Assembly: GCA_963703285.1 (NCBI GenBank)
Contig: OY969807.1
Span: forward strand, 1,472,001-1,536,000
Direction: 5' to 3'
DNA from: an uncultured Nitrososphaerota archaeon
Lineage (GTDB): Archaea > Thermoproteota > Nitrososphaeria > Nitrososphaerales > Gagatemarchaeaceae
Length of the DNA stretch: 64,000 nt
Translations under genes and position numbers: made by a program
Notes under the pieces: model-generated
What the model was told of the DNA's origin: nothing
The model's input: the letters and a program-made list of their open reading frames with translations, nothing else
Databases searched by the model: none
Shown: in pieces, positions 56,124-61,161 of the stretch
How the letters are laid out: every line of letters begins with the position of its first letter
Position numbering within the stretch: position 1 is the first letter of the stretch

Positions 56124-57071
56124 CTACACGATCAACATCATCGCCCTTCCTCCGACGTTGAAGGGAACCACGTGAGCCGCGTTTTCCTTTGATTTGAATG
56201 ACGTCAAAGTGGTCCAGCCGAGGCAGTCGCCCCTGATGCGATTCAGGGTCGCCTCTCCCGTCTTCTGATACGTGATGAAGTGTGGGCCTTCGATCAGGTC
56301 CAGCGAGCGCACGATGTCAAGGCGCTCCGCCGCCTGAAGATCGAGATGCGACCCGACCGGGACCGTCCCGGAGAGGTCGTCGAGGACGTGGTCGATGTTC
56401 ACGTTGGGCTTCAGGACGTTCGTCTTCAGGAAGAAATTCTCGCCTCCAAACTGGAAGAACGCGAACCTCGTCCATCCCTTCGCCCAGTAGTGCGACCAGA
56501 CAGGGCTCAACGAAAGCGGGGGGACTCCGGCGGCCGACGACGTCGTGCGCACGGAGAGCCTGAATATGGCGACGTGGCCGTCGTCGAAGCTGTATCCGAG
56601 GATGCCCAGCTGGCCGAAGGCGACGAAGGCCTTCAGCGTCGTGAACCCGGGCGTCGCGCCCGGCTCGCGGTCGCGGGAGTATCGGTACGGCTTGGATAAC
56701 GAGAAGCCGTCCGTCAGAGCGAGGAACTGGAACGCCCCGGCCCTCGAGTCGTAGCACATCAGATGATGCTGGTTGCCCATGACGAACGGCTCGATGATGT
56801 CAAACCCCGAGTCAATCCTGGTGGCGAGGGATGGCTTGGTGAGCCAGGGCGCGGAGTCGAGGAGCTGGAAGACATCGAGTCCGCCGCTGGCCCCGTCATA
56901 GGCGAGGAGGTGCGTCCTCTCGCCCACGACCATCGGGAACAGGCAGGAATACCCGGCGGCCAGGTCCTCGGTTGAGCCGAGCGTCTCAACGCCTGTGACG
57001 TTAGACCGGTCGTCCGTGCGAATGAGATAGATCGATGCCGAACCGCTTCGGAAAGAGTTCAAGGCCGTCAC
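56124..57071 (-). CDS. Hypothetical beta-repeat (propeller-like) protein
   Basis: About 50-aa repeats such as HLLAYD..SG, HLMCYD..AG, ILGYS..DG, FITYQKTG. Confidence 0.75.
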   Translation of the reverse strand: MTALNSFRSGSASIYLIRTDDRSNVTGVETLGSTEDLAAGYSCLFPMVVGERTHLLAYDGASGGLDVFQLLDSAPWLTKPSLATRIDSGFDIIEPFVMGNQHHLMCYDSRAGAFQFLALTDGFSLSKPYRYSRDREPGATPGFTTLKAFVAFGQLGILGYSFDDGHVAIFRLSVRTTSSAAGVPPLSLSPVWSHYWAKGWTRFAFFQFGGENFFLKTNVLKPNVNIDHVLDDLSGTVPVGSHLDLQAAERLDIVRSLDLIEGPHFITYQKTGEATLNRIRGDCLGWTTLTSFKSKENAAHVVPFNVGGRAMMLIV

Positions 57072-57207: not shown

Positions 57208-57576
57208 TCAAAGCTCGCCCGTCGGAATGAACTTCAAAGATATGGAGTTCGCGCAGTGTCGTGTGTTCTTTGCGGTGAACCCCTCTCCCAGAAAGACGTG
57301 GCCTAGGTGTGCGCCGCAATTGGCGCACTGAATTTCCGTCCGCTCTCTGTCAGGATCGGGGACCCTCTTGACAGAGCCTGGTATCTCGTCATCGAAGGCC
57401 GGCCATCCGCACCTGGCGTCGAACTTGTCGTCCGACCGGTAGAGGGGCGTCCCGCACCTCCTGCAGACGTACGTCCCCTTGCTGAAGTTTCTCTCGTACT
57501 CGCCTGAGAAGGGCGCCTCCGTCCCCTTGTGAACAATGACCTCTTCCTCCTCCGGTGTAAGCTCGTCCACCTTCAA
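57208..57576 (-). CDS. msrB: Peptide methionine-(R)-sulfoxide reductase
   Basis: GTEAPFSG, CGWPAF, RTEI.C..C.AHLGHVF, RHCANS. Confidence 0.96.
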   Translation of the reverse strand: MKVDELTPEEEEVIVHKGTEAPFSGEYERNFSKGTYVCRRCGTPLYRSDDKFDARCGWPAFDDEIPGSVKRVPDPDRERTEIQCANCGAHLGHVFLGEGFTAKNTRHCANSISLKFIPTGEL

Positions 57577-57805
57577 TTGAATCGCTGCGCTAGATACAGC
57601 GGACCCCCGAGTATTAAGTGCACCTCGCTCTGTGAGTATGCCGAAGGAAGAACCTGGGTATGCCTGGTAGATGACAGGTTCGTTGTGCCTCCGCCTGGCA
57701 GCTTCATTCGCTTCAGAAGCCCGCGGCCACCCCTAAACCCGGACCCGCTCAAACAATCTCACCTTGCGCACAAGTCAATTATACTGATGGTAGGCTGGCA
57801 AACCC

Positions 57806-58783
57806 ATGGCGAATGCTTCGCTAGGACCAGGCCCCAAGAGCGATACCGAAGATGGGAAGGTCGCTTCCATCACCAGCGGAGGGGTAACCTGGATGGACGT
57901 TCCAGACCCTACCCCCGCCGCAATGGCAACACTCGCGCGCGACTACCATTTTCACCCTTTGGACGTGGACGCGTGTCTTTCCACGGTGCATCTGACGAAG
58001 CTCGAAGACCACGGAGAATATTTCTTCATCACGCTGCAGATCCCGGACCAGGTTGGCCAGGGAATCATCAGTTCCAACCAGGTCGCGATGTTCCTGGGGA
58101 AGGACTATCTCGTGACAGTCCATCCGTCCGACCTCAAGACGATCTCGGCGCTCTTCCAGTCATGCGCCAGTGACGCGAATGAACGAAGCGCGATGATGAA
58201 GTCCTCGGCCTACCTGGCGTGTCGGATTATCGACAGGATGACCGACGGCATCTTCTCGATCTTGGAGAACGTGCAGGCGAGCCTTGACAGCATCGAGGCG
58301 GTGGTGTTCGATGAGAAGAAATCTTCGGCCCGCGCCATAAATTCCGCGCGTCGTCAAATAGCCGTCCTCAGTAGGATCGTCTACCCGTTGGGGCTGTACA
58401 TTACCGACCTGTCCAAGGCGCAGAAGTTCAGCAGTGAAGACCTTGCGATCTACTTCAGCGACATCCGCCACAAAGTCGGGAAGGTCTCGGCGACAATCGC
58501 GGAGATGAAGGACATGGTTGGGATATACAACGACACCGACTTCAGCATAACCAGCAACCGGACAAACGCCGTCCTCTCGATCTTGACAATCATCTTCACC
58601 CTCACACTCCCCGCAGCCCTGATAGCTGGCGTGTACGGAATGAACGTGCCTATTCCTGGCGCCCTGACGCCGGGACCTTGGAAATTCCTCGGAGCCTACA
58701 CCTCTGTGATAATCATCCTCGTGGCGATGCTCGTCCCGACCATCATGATGGCATTCTACTTCAAGCACCGCGGCTGGTTCTAG
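57806..58783 (+). CDS. corA: CorA family Mg2+/Co2+ transporter
   Basis: FHPLD, YLVTVH, YGMN motif between two C-terminal TM helices. Confidence 0.93.
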   Translation: MANASLGPGPKSDTEDGKVASITSGGVTWMDVPDPTPAAMATLARDYHFHPLDVDACLSTVHLTKLEDHGEYFFITLQIPDQVGQGIISSNQVAMFLGKDYLVTVHPSDLKTISALFQSCASDANERSAMMKSSAYLACRIIDRMTDGIFSILENVQASLDSIEAVVFDEKKSSARAINSARRQIAVLSRIVYPLGLYITDLSKAQKFSSEDLAIYFSDIRHKVGKVSATIAEMKDMVGIYNDTDFSITSNRTNAVLSILTIIFTLTLPAALIAGVYGMNVPIPGALTPGPWKFLGAYTSVIIILVAMLVPTIMMAFYFKHRGWF

Positions 58784-58944
58784 GCGCTGGCCGTTGCGCG
58801 AGAGGGCTAAGAGGGTGAGACGGCGCTCACAGCTCGGGCAGTGGGTGCCCTTCGATCCCCTCCGCCGGGGGAACGTTATCTTCTATCTAGCTGGAGCAAC
58901 TCGAGACCGATGACAGGAGCCCGGCGCCCTGGAGTTCCATCAAT

Positions 58945-59140
58945 GAGTCGGTTGTTAGGGTCGGCTAGTGACGCGGCAGGTGACCAGAGTGGGTCTCGGA
59001 AGAAGAGCTGTGATTTGTAATGGGTTGATTCTTGAACCGTGGATGAGCATGTGAGCTGTGATTCCAGTTTTGCCACTTCTCATGTGGGTAGTCCTTCCTC
59101 GGCCCCTCATCAGTCTCCTTAGCAATCTATGCCGACTCTC
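58945..59140 (-). ncRNA. Candidate structured RNA / 3' element downstream of the DIP1984-like gene
   Basis: Nested long-range complementary segments enclosing ~7-nt-periodic UCA repeats; inferred by eye. Confidence 0.55.
59004..59063 (-). repeat. Short-period (7-8 nt) degenerate UCA repeats including an exact 11-bp direct repeat
   Basis: On +: TGA at 59011, 59026, 59033, 59044, 59052, 59059, TAA at 59018; GAGCTGTGATT at 59005 and 59053. Confidence 0.8.
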
Positions 59141-59620
59141 CTAAACCGTGATGGTCACCCTGTGATTGGCCTCCTGTATCGCCGCGTCAAGGACGTTTCT
59201 TTGTCTCTCGTACTCTTCCTGGAGCTGGAGTAGCTCGGCGGGGGTCTTCTGCCACCTCTGTGGGACCTCATCCTTCGACCTGTGTCTCCATCCTAGGAAG
59301 TCTGACTTCCTCTCGTTACTCAGCATTCCGGAGATGTGTGTGAGCTTGATTCGGATGTTGCTCAGTTCGAGTATCGCCTTCGCGAGTGACATCTCCAAGT
59401 CCCCAATCCTGATTCGGTTCGACAAGTTCGCGGCTTGGATTGCAAGTTTCAACTCAGTCTCCCGCCTCAAGGTTTCGTCAATCTGTTCAGAGAGCGCATC
59501 ATACCGGAAATCTGGTTCGGAATCGGCCTCATAGACGAGGCTAGATTCCCTGAACTTCGAAAGCTGGATTAGTCTGGCTTTGAGCGTCTTCACCTCGGCA
59601 AGCGCCTCGTAAACCTTCAT
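59141..59620 (-). CDS. DIP1984/DUF6847-like coiled-coil protein
   Basis: MKVYEAL...LKLAIQAAN and MSLAKAI...LDAAIQEAN internal duplication, matching my recollection of the family. Confidence 0.8.
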   Translation of the reverse strand: MKVYEALAEVKTLKARLIQLSKFRESSLVYEADSEPDFRYDALSEQIDETLRRETELKLAIQAANLSNRIRIGDLEMSLAKAILELSNIRIKLTHISGMLSNERKSDFLGWRHRSKDEVPQRWQKTPAELLQLQEEYERQRNVLDAAIQEANHRVTITV

Positions 59621-59728
59621 GGTCTCTCGTCCCCTATATCCGGATACTTGGCTTTATATTCTTGATAAGTAAAGAATCCTTTGGCTCTACTTAAGAATCC
59701 TTTACTTCCTTTGGTTGTAGGAAAGCCC

Positions 59729-59887
59729 TTGGTTAGAGAAATCCTGGGAACGAGCAGGATAAGCAGCAAATTCCAGATTACGGTCCCCAAGGAAGTAAGG
59801 GATCGGTTCAAGCTCAGCGCCGAGGAGATTCTCGTCTTCTCAGATGATGATGGGAAGCTCATCCTTCGCAAGAGTACAGAGGCGTAG
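59729..59887 (+). CDS. AbrB/MazE/SpoVT family DNA-binding protein
   Basis: SRISSKFQITVPKEVRDRFKL..EILVF..LILRK. Confidence 0.9.
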   Translation: MVREILGTSRISSKFQITVPKEVRDRFKLSAEEILVFSDDDGKLILRKSTEA

Positions 59888-60129
59888 CGTCCGACCTGCT
59901 TCATCTTCGCGTACCTCAATCCTATGCTGAGACCGTATATTAGCGCCAACGCAAGCTTGGCATTCGACCGTTGTGGGATTTCCATGCGCTCGAGAACAAT
60001 CGTGCTTTTGGCGGGATGTCCAATCGATGTTCCAGTCCCGGTCCTTGCTCTGCAATGGAGGGTGGACAACTCGTCCAGAATGATTTTATCCCCCGAACCC
60101 CCCGAGCAGCGAGCATGAAGAAAAATTAG

Positions 60130-60429
60130 TTGCCTTCCAGACCAAGAGGAAGAGAGGACGAAGTAGTCATAATCGGAGTGAGGAAGAAGAGCGGCCATTC
60201 CGACGAGGTTTGTGTCGAGTGCAGGCTTGGTCGCCTTCGATTCGCAGTATCTCTGCCTTCGGACGAGTTCAGTTTTGTCGAGCTGAAGAAAGAAATTGGC
60301 AGAAGCCTGCAATGTGAGTTTGGGACGAGATATGCCAAATCACTAGTCGGACGGGCGATTCCTTTGGCCGAGATCATCAAGGAATCAGACGCTTCTAAGC
60401 GAGGTAACAAGTTCTGGGACTTGTTCTAA
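60130..60429 (+). CDS. Hypothetical protein
   Basis: 99-aa ORF, TTTTATC box upstream; no family recognised. Confidence 0.5.
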   Translation: MPSRPRGREDEVVIIGVRKKSGHSDEVCVECRLGRLRFAVSLPSDEFSFVELKKEIGRSLQCEFGTRYAKSLVGRAIPLAEIIKESDASKRGNKFWDLF

Positions 60430-60506
60430 GCCCATTGCGCCTGCGCCGGGTATTCCTCGTTTAGCCTTGGGCCGCATTCGGCCGACCTGCGTCAGGTGTT
60501 TGGTTC

Positions 60507-60647
60507 TCACTTGGTGGAAGCCTTCGCTTCCACCCGTTTCTTTTCCTTCGCCCTCATGAACAGCTCCGTCGCCACCAGGGCCTCGGCCGACGCCTTCGTC
60601 AAGGCTCGAATCTCACGCTTCTCCCTGGGATTCAGCTCTTTCTTCAT
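60507..60647 (-). CDS. 46-aa basic helical hypothetical protein (not in ORF track)
   Basis: MKKELNPREKREIRALTKASAEALVATELFMRAKEKKRVEAKASTK; purine-rich RBS-like sequence; ATGA overlap with ORF 60644..60958. Confidence 0.5.
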   Translation of the reverse strand: MKKELNPREKREIRALTKASAEALVATELFMRAKEKKRVEAKASTK

Positions 60648-60973
60648 CCTCGCTTCAATTCCTCCTCCTCGCTCTTAAATCTTGTAGATGCCTCAGCGTA
60701 GTAAAATTCTGCTGCCAACTTCTTGTTGAAGATGATCTGGATGACGTTGCCTACCCGTATCAACCTCACGGAGGTCGCGCCCAAGTCGTATTGGCTGGCT
60801 TGGAAGTCCGAGGAAGTCACATCACCGAAGTTTTGTGGAGTACTTGACTCCCCAGTGTTAGATTTGCGCCATGGACTCGACCGCGTAGGTTTCATTGCGC
60901 CTCCGCCTGGGAACGTTTCCTTGCATGTGTTGACACGGAATTCGCGTCTGTCCGACATGAGAATGATCAGCCG

Positions 60974-61161
60974 ATGAAGAAGACCAATCTCCAGATGGGG
61001 TCGGTCTTAACTACCCGCGGTTCACCGGGTACCTCGGGTGGCTGGTGTCCCATGGGCTCGTGGGAAGCAAAGAAGAGGACGGCGACGAACTGTATTCTCT
61101 CTCGGCGCAGGGGCCCGACGCGCACCATCGTCTTGTGGGTTGGATGAGGGAGAGACCATGA
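60974..61161 (+). pseudogene. Degenerate winged-HTH regulator
   Basis: MKKTNLQMG, frameshift near 60999, then GLNYPRFTGYLGWLVSHGLV...YSLSAQG; 5' part missing. Confidence 0.6.

Follow-up and report, generated by a model that had tools for sequence, protein, structure and literature searches.

The DNA analysed here, hereafter the window, is a stretch of 64,000 nt from an uncultured Nitrososphaerota archaeon (contig OY969807.1 of assembly GCA_963703285.1, positions 1,472,001 to 1,536,000), and all coordinates below are those of the window unless a locus is named. Its minus strand carries a gene of the DUF6847/DIP1984 family (59141-59620, 159 aa), which is followed directly by a conserved structured element of 191 nt, a candidate RNA (58955-59145, minus strand). 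The element is very probably a selected nucleic-acid structure tied to the DIP1984 gene. About even chances are given to the fuller reading, in which protein and element would form one module, the element being a structured RNA with a heptad loop that several DIP1984 dimers would read. Both the RNA and the protein appear to lie outside any characterised system, and the element appears to be new.

The conserved element downstream of the DIP1984 gene

The element extends from 2 nt before the UAG stop codon of the gene to ...GCCGACCCUAA. The comparison included 14 distinct loci after duplicate removal, with L011-L013 (duplicates of L004-L006) and L022 (a duplicate of L015) counted once; a scan of metagenome contigs had contributed nine loci, and the three found in a scan of genome contigs were all in the set already. 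Two loci (L018 and L021) end inside the gene. In all 12 Nitrososphaerales loci having downstream DNA, six from genomes and six from metagenome contigs, the element was kept, with a length of 178-205 nt and a 3' end at ...GCCG(R)CCCUA(A). This 3' boundary is sharp, as the flanks past CCCUAA cannot be aligned and encode different things. Since these flanks are unrelated and the upstream neighbours also differ, the inherited unit is the gene plus the element.

A covariance model of the DNA downstream of homologues, which an earlier note on this stretch had proposed, was built from 11 copies (model R1). Over the 97 genomes of the archaeal family, as defined in GTDB, R1 found one copy each in five genomes, always adjoining the gene, and no orphan element, that is, no copy without the gene. 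Scores on the copies were 134-199 bits. The divergent copy of L023 (genome G484), on which the model was not trained, scored 18.1 bits (E 4.6e-4), and with filters off R1 placed it exactly at the coordinates marked by eye. A search of Rfam 15, also proposed in the note, gave no matches at E up to 10 in 57500-61000, leaving the element outside its families. Repeated or mobile DNA was rejected as an explanation, the element being single copy in the genome of the window (G000). No description of an associated RNA was found in the part of the DUF6847/DIP1984 and septicolysin literature that was searched.

All five pairings that the note had listed as nested complementary segments were present in the minimum free energy (MFE) fold of 58945-59145 (minus strand, -55.4 kcal/mol). 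The outermost helix, P1a, pairs UAGG (59140-59143) with CCUA (58956-58959) and thus contains the stop codon (UAG, 59143-59141); its four pairs are invariant in 12 of 12 sequences. After a 3-nt bulge follows P1b, seen in both the MFE fold and the alignment, where GUCGGC (59131-59136) pairs with GCCGAC (58960-58965; consensus across relatives GYCGGC:GCCGRC), and after a bulged A follows P1c, UAG (59127-59129) with CUA (58966-58968). The variable middle of the closing rod (59101-59126, including GACUG, of which GACU pairs with GGUC, and GAG/GGG, paired with 58969-58998 in the MFE fold) differs in length and sequence among relatives. In P4, GAGGAAG (59094-59100) pairs with CUUCUUC (58999-59005), which is CUUUUUCC in most relatives; the consensus of this stem is GAGGAA:UUUUCC, and its four core pairs are paired in 100% of the 12 sequences. 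The rod from P1 to P4 closes about 100 nt, beginning with the P5 hairpin CCAC-AUGAGAA-GUGG (59073-59087, with a 7-nt loop of consensus NUGRGAA), and the same architecture was found in all sequences. All these strands are read on the minus strand. The stop codon is UAG in all 12 archaeal genes, as P1a requires; nine bacterial homologues use all three stops. A bulge-helix-bulge splice motif and a K-turn at P1 were considered by eye and dropped, as the bulge pattern does not fit them.

Conservation of the stems was measured on the 12-sequence alignment fitted by R1, which leans toward the structure and in which the divergent L023 supplies much of the covariation. The stems were paired in 95.5% of 313 cells, versus 23-48% when the partners were slid by 1-3 columns; changes on both sides were seen in 12 of 27 pairs, versus 0-3 when slid, and 0 of 500 shuffles reached the observed values. 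The claim of a foldable element directly after the stop codon therefore holds in all 12 loci. Similar values came from a MAFFT alignment of 11 sequences that was not fitted to the structure, with 95.9% paired versus 21-48% slid, and with 12 doubly changed cells, a number reached by 0 of 500 shuffles. The clearest compensatory cases are U-A versus C-G in P1b, C-G versus G-C in P5, and C-G, U-A or A-U in the short stem below P4. In P1b, pair 11/210 is C-G in six sequences, U-A in three and U-G in one, and pair 13/208 is G-C in 11 and U-A in one. Pair 68/76 of P5 is C-G in five sequences and G-C in five, where CCAC/GUGG alternates with UCAG/CUGA, and pair 47/173, below P4, is C-G in five, U-A in three and A-U in two. 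Cells with G-U outnumbered those with A-C by 19 to 4 (17 to 2 on the MAFFT alignment), an excess that favours the sense (gene) strand, in a test biased toward that strand because the structure was picked on it.

The element was rejected as a coding region on the basis of its out-of-frame indels and of codon phases that vary alike. Among 315 pairwise indels, 70 had a length of zero modulo three, 150 of one and 95 of two, so that 245 were out of frame; in the gene, used as a control, 52 of 52 were multiples of three. The mean pairwise difference by phase was 0.30/0.29/0.36 in the element and 0.25/0.15/0.48 in the gene, and the element is more conserved than the third positions of the gene. The reading frame at the 3' end differs among copies, with six of 12 lengths out of phase. 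In eight of 12 copies, the frame that continues beyond the UAG meets no stop for 58-66 codons; it has fewer stops than the other two frames, because U nearly always precedes C in the UCA runs. The 66-aa open reading frame (ORF) at 58876-59076, raised in the earlier note as a possible protein, is not conserved as one, as it runs 79 nt beyond the 3' boundary of the element into the unalignable flank and the indels are out of frame. Pfam and NCBIfam searches with the ORFs of the element found no family match.

The heptad register and the DIP1984 protein

The closing rod contains an internal loop with UCA triplets (59006-59064, minus strand), whose first bases lie at 59061, 59054, 59046, 59035, 59028 and 59013, and which includes two copies of AATCACAGCTC. 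This 11-mer, correctly described before as an exact repeat, occurs at 59053-59063 and 59005-59015 (minus strand), two copies in the window versus 0.02 expected. In the 12 copies of the element together, 36 pairs of UCA triplets are 7 nt apart and 18 are 14 nt apart, where 1000 dinucleotide shuffles gave 1.3±1.2 for each distance (1.31±1.17 for lag 7) and neither count was reached by any of them; these counts overstate independence, because the sequences are kin and represent about three lineages. A periodic loop behind homologues, as the note had predicted, was thus found. The generic 3-mer autocorrelation at lag 7 gave z = 1.1 in the window copy and was not significant in L004 and L016.

The relatives carry runs of three to five exact 7-nt units. 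The spacings in L015, L019 and L020 are 7, 7, 7, 21, 7 and 7. The group-2 lineage reads UCACAGC, UCAAAGG, UCACGAC and UCAGCCC, then a hairpin with a GNRA cap, then UCACAGC, UCAGGAA and UCACAGA; the inserted hairpin spans exactly 21 nt in five of six group-2 copies, so the heptad phase is kept across it. In the divergent L023 there are five units with the same 7-nt spacing and different spacers. A pattern of four consecutive units, 4x(TCA N4), occurs once in five genomes (~11 Mb, both strands), inside the element of genome G008, and the reversed control pattern also occurs once in those genomes. The UCA runs are predicted to be single-stranded.

The label of DIP1984-like coiled-coil protein given in the earlier note was right as to family. 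The 159-aa protein matched Pfam PF20935 with 30.2 bits (cut-off 27) over profile positions 3-139 of 141, and its AlphaFold2 model (predicted local distance difference test, pLDDT, 84.5) consists of four long helices and one beta-hairpin. The sole significant fold match in the PDB, as found by Foldseek, was 3kdq (E 1.8e-4, template modelling (TM) score 0.78-0.82, 158 columns), and a profile built on 48 relatives matched the same entry at E 6e-20, with an identity of 18-19%. The Pfam, fold and profile matches together make the family assignment sound. A phmmer search of the PDB with the single protein sequence found nothing meaningful, and the full-length match to NCBIfam NF038048 (DIP1984_fam; 37 bits, E 3.3e-9) was below the cut-off of 70, so that the protein is, by its sequence, a distant member of DIP1984_fam outside the NCBI naming threshold. 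3KDQ is the uncharacterised conserved protein DIP1984 of Corynebacterium diphtheriae, with no function assigned and solved without nucleic acid.

A symmetric homodimer is supported by structure prediction, with a score of 0.76 versus 0.02 for the best of three controls, contact agreement of at least 94% between runs and a partner pLDDT of at least 87. The mark used was reached by 20 of 30 proteins with pairs of the same chain versus 1 of 23 single-chain proteins, and reaching it here may mean that the predictor had memorised 3KDQ, an entry with four chains. Only two residues are invariant in the family, N65 and N152. N65 lies inside the predicted dimer interface together with Q62, and N152 is absent from the listed interface residues. 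Neither a nuclease-like fold nor a catalytic motif was found by Foldseek or by comparison of invariant residues. The isoelectric point (pI) ranges from 5.1 to 9.8 across the whole family.

The gene is rarely found, and its distribution is patchy. It has one copy in the genome of the window and is present in six of the 97 genomes of its GTDB family, and in a sample of 401 genomes across the phylum only G000 itself had it (0 of 400 others). Searches of plasmids and phages by tblastn with the archaeal protein and with P0017 gave no match. In the ESM Atlas, a cluster of look-alikes has 106 members, 55% of them viral (Uroviricota) and 16% carrying DUF6847; a scan of viral contigs with alignment A10 gave 51 pattern matches, and no relative was confirmed among them.

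Two of the archaeal genes have unusual features. The match to the G008 gene (L007:1435-1929, minus strand) is split over two frames and broken near codons 126-142, and the element downstream of it is intact (177.5 bits); this locus represents either an assembly error or a pseudogene that has kept its RNA. In L015 and its duplicate L022, the codon aligned with the gene start is CTG (L015:2001-2003), and the first in-frame ATG, GTG or TTG lies 18 nt further in.

Bacterial DIP1984 loci and surroundings of the archaeal gene

Searches by tblastn with the protein of pAB0057, an Acinetobacter plasmid, and then with a mycobacterial protein gave 373 and 370 plasmid records. Nine loci from four phyla were compared, those of Acinetobacter, Psychrobacter, Paracoccus, Enterococcus, Picosynechococcus, two mycobacteria, Streptantibioticus and Streptomyces. 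L037 (H37) was excluded, as its match was in two pieces with an early stop and the supposed downstream part still belonged to the gene; L035 differs very little from L034. In all nine plasmid loci, 200-620 nt without an annotated gene lie directly 3' of the DIP1984 gene. A gene-linked downstream element is thus general among the bacterial loci examined. The blocks RGCG(A)GYRCA, CAGCACYG, ACC-RYGURCUGAU and GAGGGYGGGnnCGGGG are shared across the four phyla. The downstream stretches are at L029:6794-7115, L039:1085-1525, L038:1079-1290, L036:1079-1346 and L030:1651-1850 in the non-actinobacterial loci (proteobacterial, cyanobacterial and Enterococcus), and at L031:1582-1810, L032:1094-1320, L033:1094-1330 and L034/L035:1094-1320 (plus strand) in the actinobacterial ones. 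GAGGGYGGGnnCGGGG was seen in Paracoccus and Picosynechococcus, shared with the actinobacterial element.

Mycobacterium and Streptomyces share 77% identity in the actinobacterial element. The predicted structure of this element was paired in 88.8% of cells versus 27-45% slid, with 10 doubly changed pairs, a lenient test because the structure was derived from the same five sequences. An unbiased lag scan gave lag 7 as the top lag in M. rufum (z 4.3, with lag 14 at z 3.4) and in Psychrobacter (z 3.1), whose element reads UCACAGCUCACAAG. A weaker lag-7 signal was found in M. branderi, S. cattleyicolor and Paracoccus (z 1.7-2.0), and lag 7 was not significant in Streptomyces NBC_01001. The elements behind the bacterial genes had no Rfam match at E up to 1.

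The actinobacterial element also contains a hairpin like the T arm of a tRNA, GGGGUUCGACUCCCC, preceded directly by the hairpin GCGC-GAAGGGCA-GCGC, which covaries to GCGU...ACGC in Streptantibioticus. The two together could mimic a tRNA elbow; ARAGORN and Rfam found nothing at the T-arm-like hairpin. A match to a T-box leader (86.8 bits, gathering score 93) was found 5' of the DIP1984 gene in Enterococcus, on the other strand (L030:800-1030, minus strand). Small Acinetobacter plasmids with a DIP1984 gene also carry BrnT/BrnA, and the DIP1984 genes of Acinetobacter and Enterococcus plasmids are annotated as 'septicolysin' or 'hypothetical'.

In the window, the minus strand 3' of the DIP1984 ORF has 357 nt without a credible gene, followed by a convergent CorA gene (57806-58783). 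Nearby housekeeping genes encode MsrB, CorA, a zinc dehydrogenase and a HAD hydrolase. A divergent gene of AbrB/MazE type (SpoVT/AbrB) lies at 59681-59887 on the plus strand (Pfam MazE_antitoxin, 35.8 bits; TIGR01439, 45 bits); its true start is probably near 59732, as judged from the 53-aa homologue in L007. Upstream, six of 13 loci have a homologous ORF and two have a ParE-like pair; other genes are found elsewhere. The direct repeat AAAGGATTCTT is located between the AbrB-type and DIP1984 genes, with copies at 59672-59682 and 59693-59703 (minus strand), 21 nt apart. The first copy is kept in L006, L007 and L017, and the repeat is likely an operator for the AbrB-type protein.

At loci without an AbrB-type neighbour, the conserved motif ATGGGCGCTAATAT was found about 45 nt 5' of the DIP1984 start codon, in L004 (~1455-1470), at the same place in L014, L015, L016 and L019, and in weaker form in L005. 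It opens an in-frame N-terminal extension in L004 and a 13-codon upstream ORF in L014, and is a candidate leader peptide, promoter or 5' untranslated region (UTR) element. Between the AbrB-type gene and the dehydrogenase gene, ~1.2 kb of the window (59900-61150) holds short overlapping ORFs only, three of which gave no Pfam match; this may be degraded or non-coding DNA. The 315-aa ORF at 56124-57071 (minus strand) matched none of the Pfam families at E up to 0.01. A scan for promoters and terminators, bacterial in design, gave nothing above shuffles; PADLOC found no defence system, and ARAGORN had no match at the locus or on the bacterial downstream elements.

Interpretation and comparison with known systems

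In the reading that we prefer, the gene (59620-59141, minus strand) and the following 191 nt would be one inherited module, with an RNA made from the same transcript, either as the 3' UTR or as a processed product. The rod from P1 to P4 would enclose P5 together with UCA triplets at an exact 7-nt spacing, in one single-stranded run or two, and several DIP1984 dimers could sit side by side on these runs, one unit per heptad, much as HutP does. The resulting ribonucleoprotein (RNP) would be the functional entity, or the protein would sense and limit its own mRNA. We infer transcription on the sense strand, binding by the DIP1984 protein, its stoichiometry and its role; binding to the heptad array is drawn from the gene linkage and the geometry of the loop. 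With the stop codon located in P1, the rod has to be opened by any ribosome that terminates there, so that folding and binding would be coupled to translation of the gene.

We also entertain, as a tentative and on balance doubtful extension, that DIP1984/DUF6847 proteins and the RNA behind their genes are an ancient RNP of Archaea and at least four bacterial phyla, common on plasmids, in which dimers are lined up on a single-stranded heptad array (UCA in archaea, YAC in bacteria) presented by a closing rod. If true, it would represent a principle of protein-on-RNA assembly undescribed for any prokaryotic RNP, and the first functional handle on a family whose structure was solved in 2009 and which was long mis-annotated as 'septicolysin'. 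The family combines a solved structure with no function, and is found on many plasmids, including widespread ones of Acinetobacter and Enterococcus; should each of these genes come with a structured RNA of its own, an annotation that led nowhere would turn into an RNA-protein system open to experiment. The element itself would then represent a new class of RNA outside Rfam, with a strict 7-nt triplet register in a loop that is easily mutated, and one of few candidate structured RNAs from the Nitrososphaerales, which are ammonia-oxidising soil archaea. With a stop codon in the closing stem, it could also serve as a simple model for the coupling of translation termination and RNA folding, in a small system of a 159-aa protein and a 191-nt RNA.

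Several observations weigh against these readings. The 12 sequences amount to about three lineages of one archaeal family. The fold of the window copy has z = -1.46 and was equalled or bettered by 20 of 200 shuffles, so that a fold above chance is argued from its conservation across relatives and not from this single sequence. The covariation among the 11 close relatives is modest, as on the MAFFT alignment only four pairs were doubly changed, a number matched by 80 of 500 shuffles. Folding energy is alike for the two strands, with a mean forward-minus-reverse MFE difference of -1.0 kcal/mol and alifold values of -15.7 versus -16.3. The earlier note described the triplets as mostly 7-8 nt apart, which is fair as a description of the loop but hides its irregularity, the spacings in the window copy being 7, 8, 11, 7 and 15 nt, the least regular of all copies. 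N65, placed by the prediction in the dimer interface, is no obvious base-reading surface; the archaeal proteins have a mildly acidic pI (5.8-6.3), which is atypical for RNA binders, and the single basic segment (residues 109-126, net +3) is the lowest-confidence part of the model. As to the bacterial loci, no lag-7 periodicity was found in Acinetobacter, Enterococcus or Picosynechococcus (the last peaks at lag 9), and the archaeal R1 did not detect the downstream elements in 10 bacterial loci, where its best matches were unrelated short hairpins; homology of the archaeal and bacterial RNAs is therefore unsupported.

In most copies, a conserved run of five U (CUUUUUCC) occurs at the position of the 3' strand of P4 (58999-59006 in the window). 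Such a run is a typical archaeal termination signal. Some transcripts might end in it, before the 3' half of the rod, which would also count against a complete RNA.

Among the alternatives, the one that survives best, though we consider it unlikely, is that the element acts in cis as a 3' UTR structure that DIP1984 does not bind, serving 3'-end protection, termination or processing, or the docking of another host factor. The heptads could then be read by an Sm-like or other RNA-binding protein, and the linkage to the gene would arise through control of the mRNA. An element that begins at the stop codon, with no room for a promoter of its own and with the UAG included in P1 in 12 of 12 sequences, fits this explanation, as do the stable closing rod and the mildly acidic protein, and the absence of orphan copies in 97 genomes fits a purely cis role equally well. 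However, neither ~190 nt nor a single-stranded heptad array kept across lineages would be required for stabilisation or termination. An analogous element behind DIP1984 genes in four bacterial phyla also argues against it, as long elements in phyla with quite different transcription and decay machinery suggest a link with the protein and not with host RNA turnover.

It is quite improbable that the heptads work as duplex DNA, that is, as contiguous 7-bp iterons bound cooperatively by dimers of the AbrB-type protein or of DIP1984, in an operator or a centromere-like site. Such an array has a precedent that tells against an RNA, the WATCACW heptads of pSM19035 with one dimer per repeat (PMC9499535). 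The element literally contains AATCACA and has runs of three to five contiguous units (UCAxxxx, some of them AATCACA); the positions flanking TCA are not W-rich. An AbrB/MazE-type neighbour in six of 13 loci, a ParE-like pair in two, the frequency of DIP1984 genes on plasmids and a folding energy that is blind to the strand are all compatible with a DNA site. In contrast, a duplex site has no need of the stems ~150 nt apart that enclose the repeats precisely and show compensatory changes, nor of G-U over A-C cells by 19 to 4. All repeats have one orientation, whereas omega sites mix orientations, and the site lies 3' of the gene instead of in a promoter. The only constant partner is DIP1984, a helical bundle; a constant ribbon-helix-helix (RHH) or partition-ATPase neighbour is lacking, with no ParA in the archaeal loci and none annotated in the bacterial ones.

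A type III-like toxin-antitoxin or plasmid-addiction pair, in which a harmful or growth-arresting protein is sequestered by the adjacent repetitive RNA, is very unlikely. The patchy, accessory distribution of the gene (six of 97 genomes) would suit it, as would the bacterial homologues on plasmids, including the small Acinetobacter ones with BrnT/BrnA, the AbrB/MazE-type or ParE-like genes adjoining archaeal copies, and a repeat RNA strictly linked to the protein. Nevertheless, there is no PADLOC match and no nuclease-like fold, only two Asn are invariant, and the RNA lies downstream with its 7-nt units embedded in a single fold. The G008 locus, with a seemingly broken gene and an intact RNA, would be odd for an antitoxin, unless this is an assembly error. 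Lastly, a small protein or read-through extension of DIP1984 encoded by the element is hardly credible, despite the open frames past the UAG with the fewest stops, given 245 of 315 indels out of frame, phases that vary alike, differing frames at the 3' end, a DUF6847 profile match that already reaches position 139 of 141 at the stop, and no family on the ORFs.

Known systems resemble the proposed module in part. PDB 3KDQ has the same fold (TM score 0.78-0.82) and belongs to the same family, with the difference that identity is 18-19%. The ornate, large, extremophilic (OLE) RNA with OapA, and Y RNA with Rsr, are alike in that the gene for a structured RNA adjoins the gene for its protein partner across many species; these are separate RNA genes with Rfam families, whereas the element described here has no Rfam match, starts at a stop codon and holds a heptad array. 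Known type III antitoxins have tandem repeats of ~36 nt upstream of the endoribonuclease toxin that cuts them, in closed assemblies. In ToxIN, too, accessory DNA encodes a repetitive RNA next to a protein, but here the element is downstream, with 7-nt units in one fold, no nuclease-like fold and no PADLOC match.

Short motifs read in series by protein oligomers are familiar from other RNAs. TRAP binds 11 GAG/UAG triplets with 2-3 nt spacers as an 11-mer ring, and CsrA reads GGA in hairpin loops. The trp leader bound by TRAP and the CsrB sponge RNAs bound by CsrA/RsmE are alike in having repeated short motifs with one subunit or dimer on each; unlike in the present case, the RNA is not fused to the 3' end of the protein's gene, and there is no relation in sequence or fold. 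For the parS sites of pSM19035, PMC9499535 describes 7-10 consecutive 5'-WATCACW-3' heptads, with one RHH dimer on each and at least four contiguous heptads needed. These contiguous 7-bp units contain TCAC, and AATCACA is present in the element. The omega sites, on the other hand, are duplex DNA in promoter regions, in both orientations, with an RHH protein and a ParA partner, while the heptads studied here all run in one direction, lie 3' of the gene within covarying stems, and lack a constant neighbour of the RHH or ParA kind.

A further parallel is HutP on the hut terminator RNA of Bacillus subtilis, for which PMC2425495 describes three XAG motifs with 4-nt spacers bound at each of two sites. 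HutP differs in being a hexameric alpha/beta protein that acts as an antiterminator on XAG motifs in a 5' leader. The system presented here has UCA triplets, a predicted helical-bundle dimer, of neither the HutP nor the TRAP fold, and an RNA placed 3' of its own gene in a closed rod. The two are alike in their triplets with 4-nt spacers, which give a 7-nt register, in the arrangement of these triplets in two groups, which in HutP RNA number three each and are set apart by a linker, and in an oligomer as the reader, putative in our case; the archaeal group-2 elements match this layout with a run of four heptads and a run of three, separated by a hairpin.

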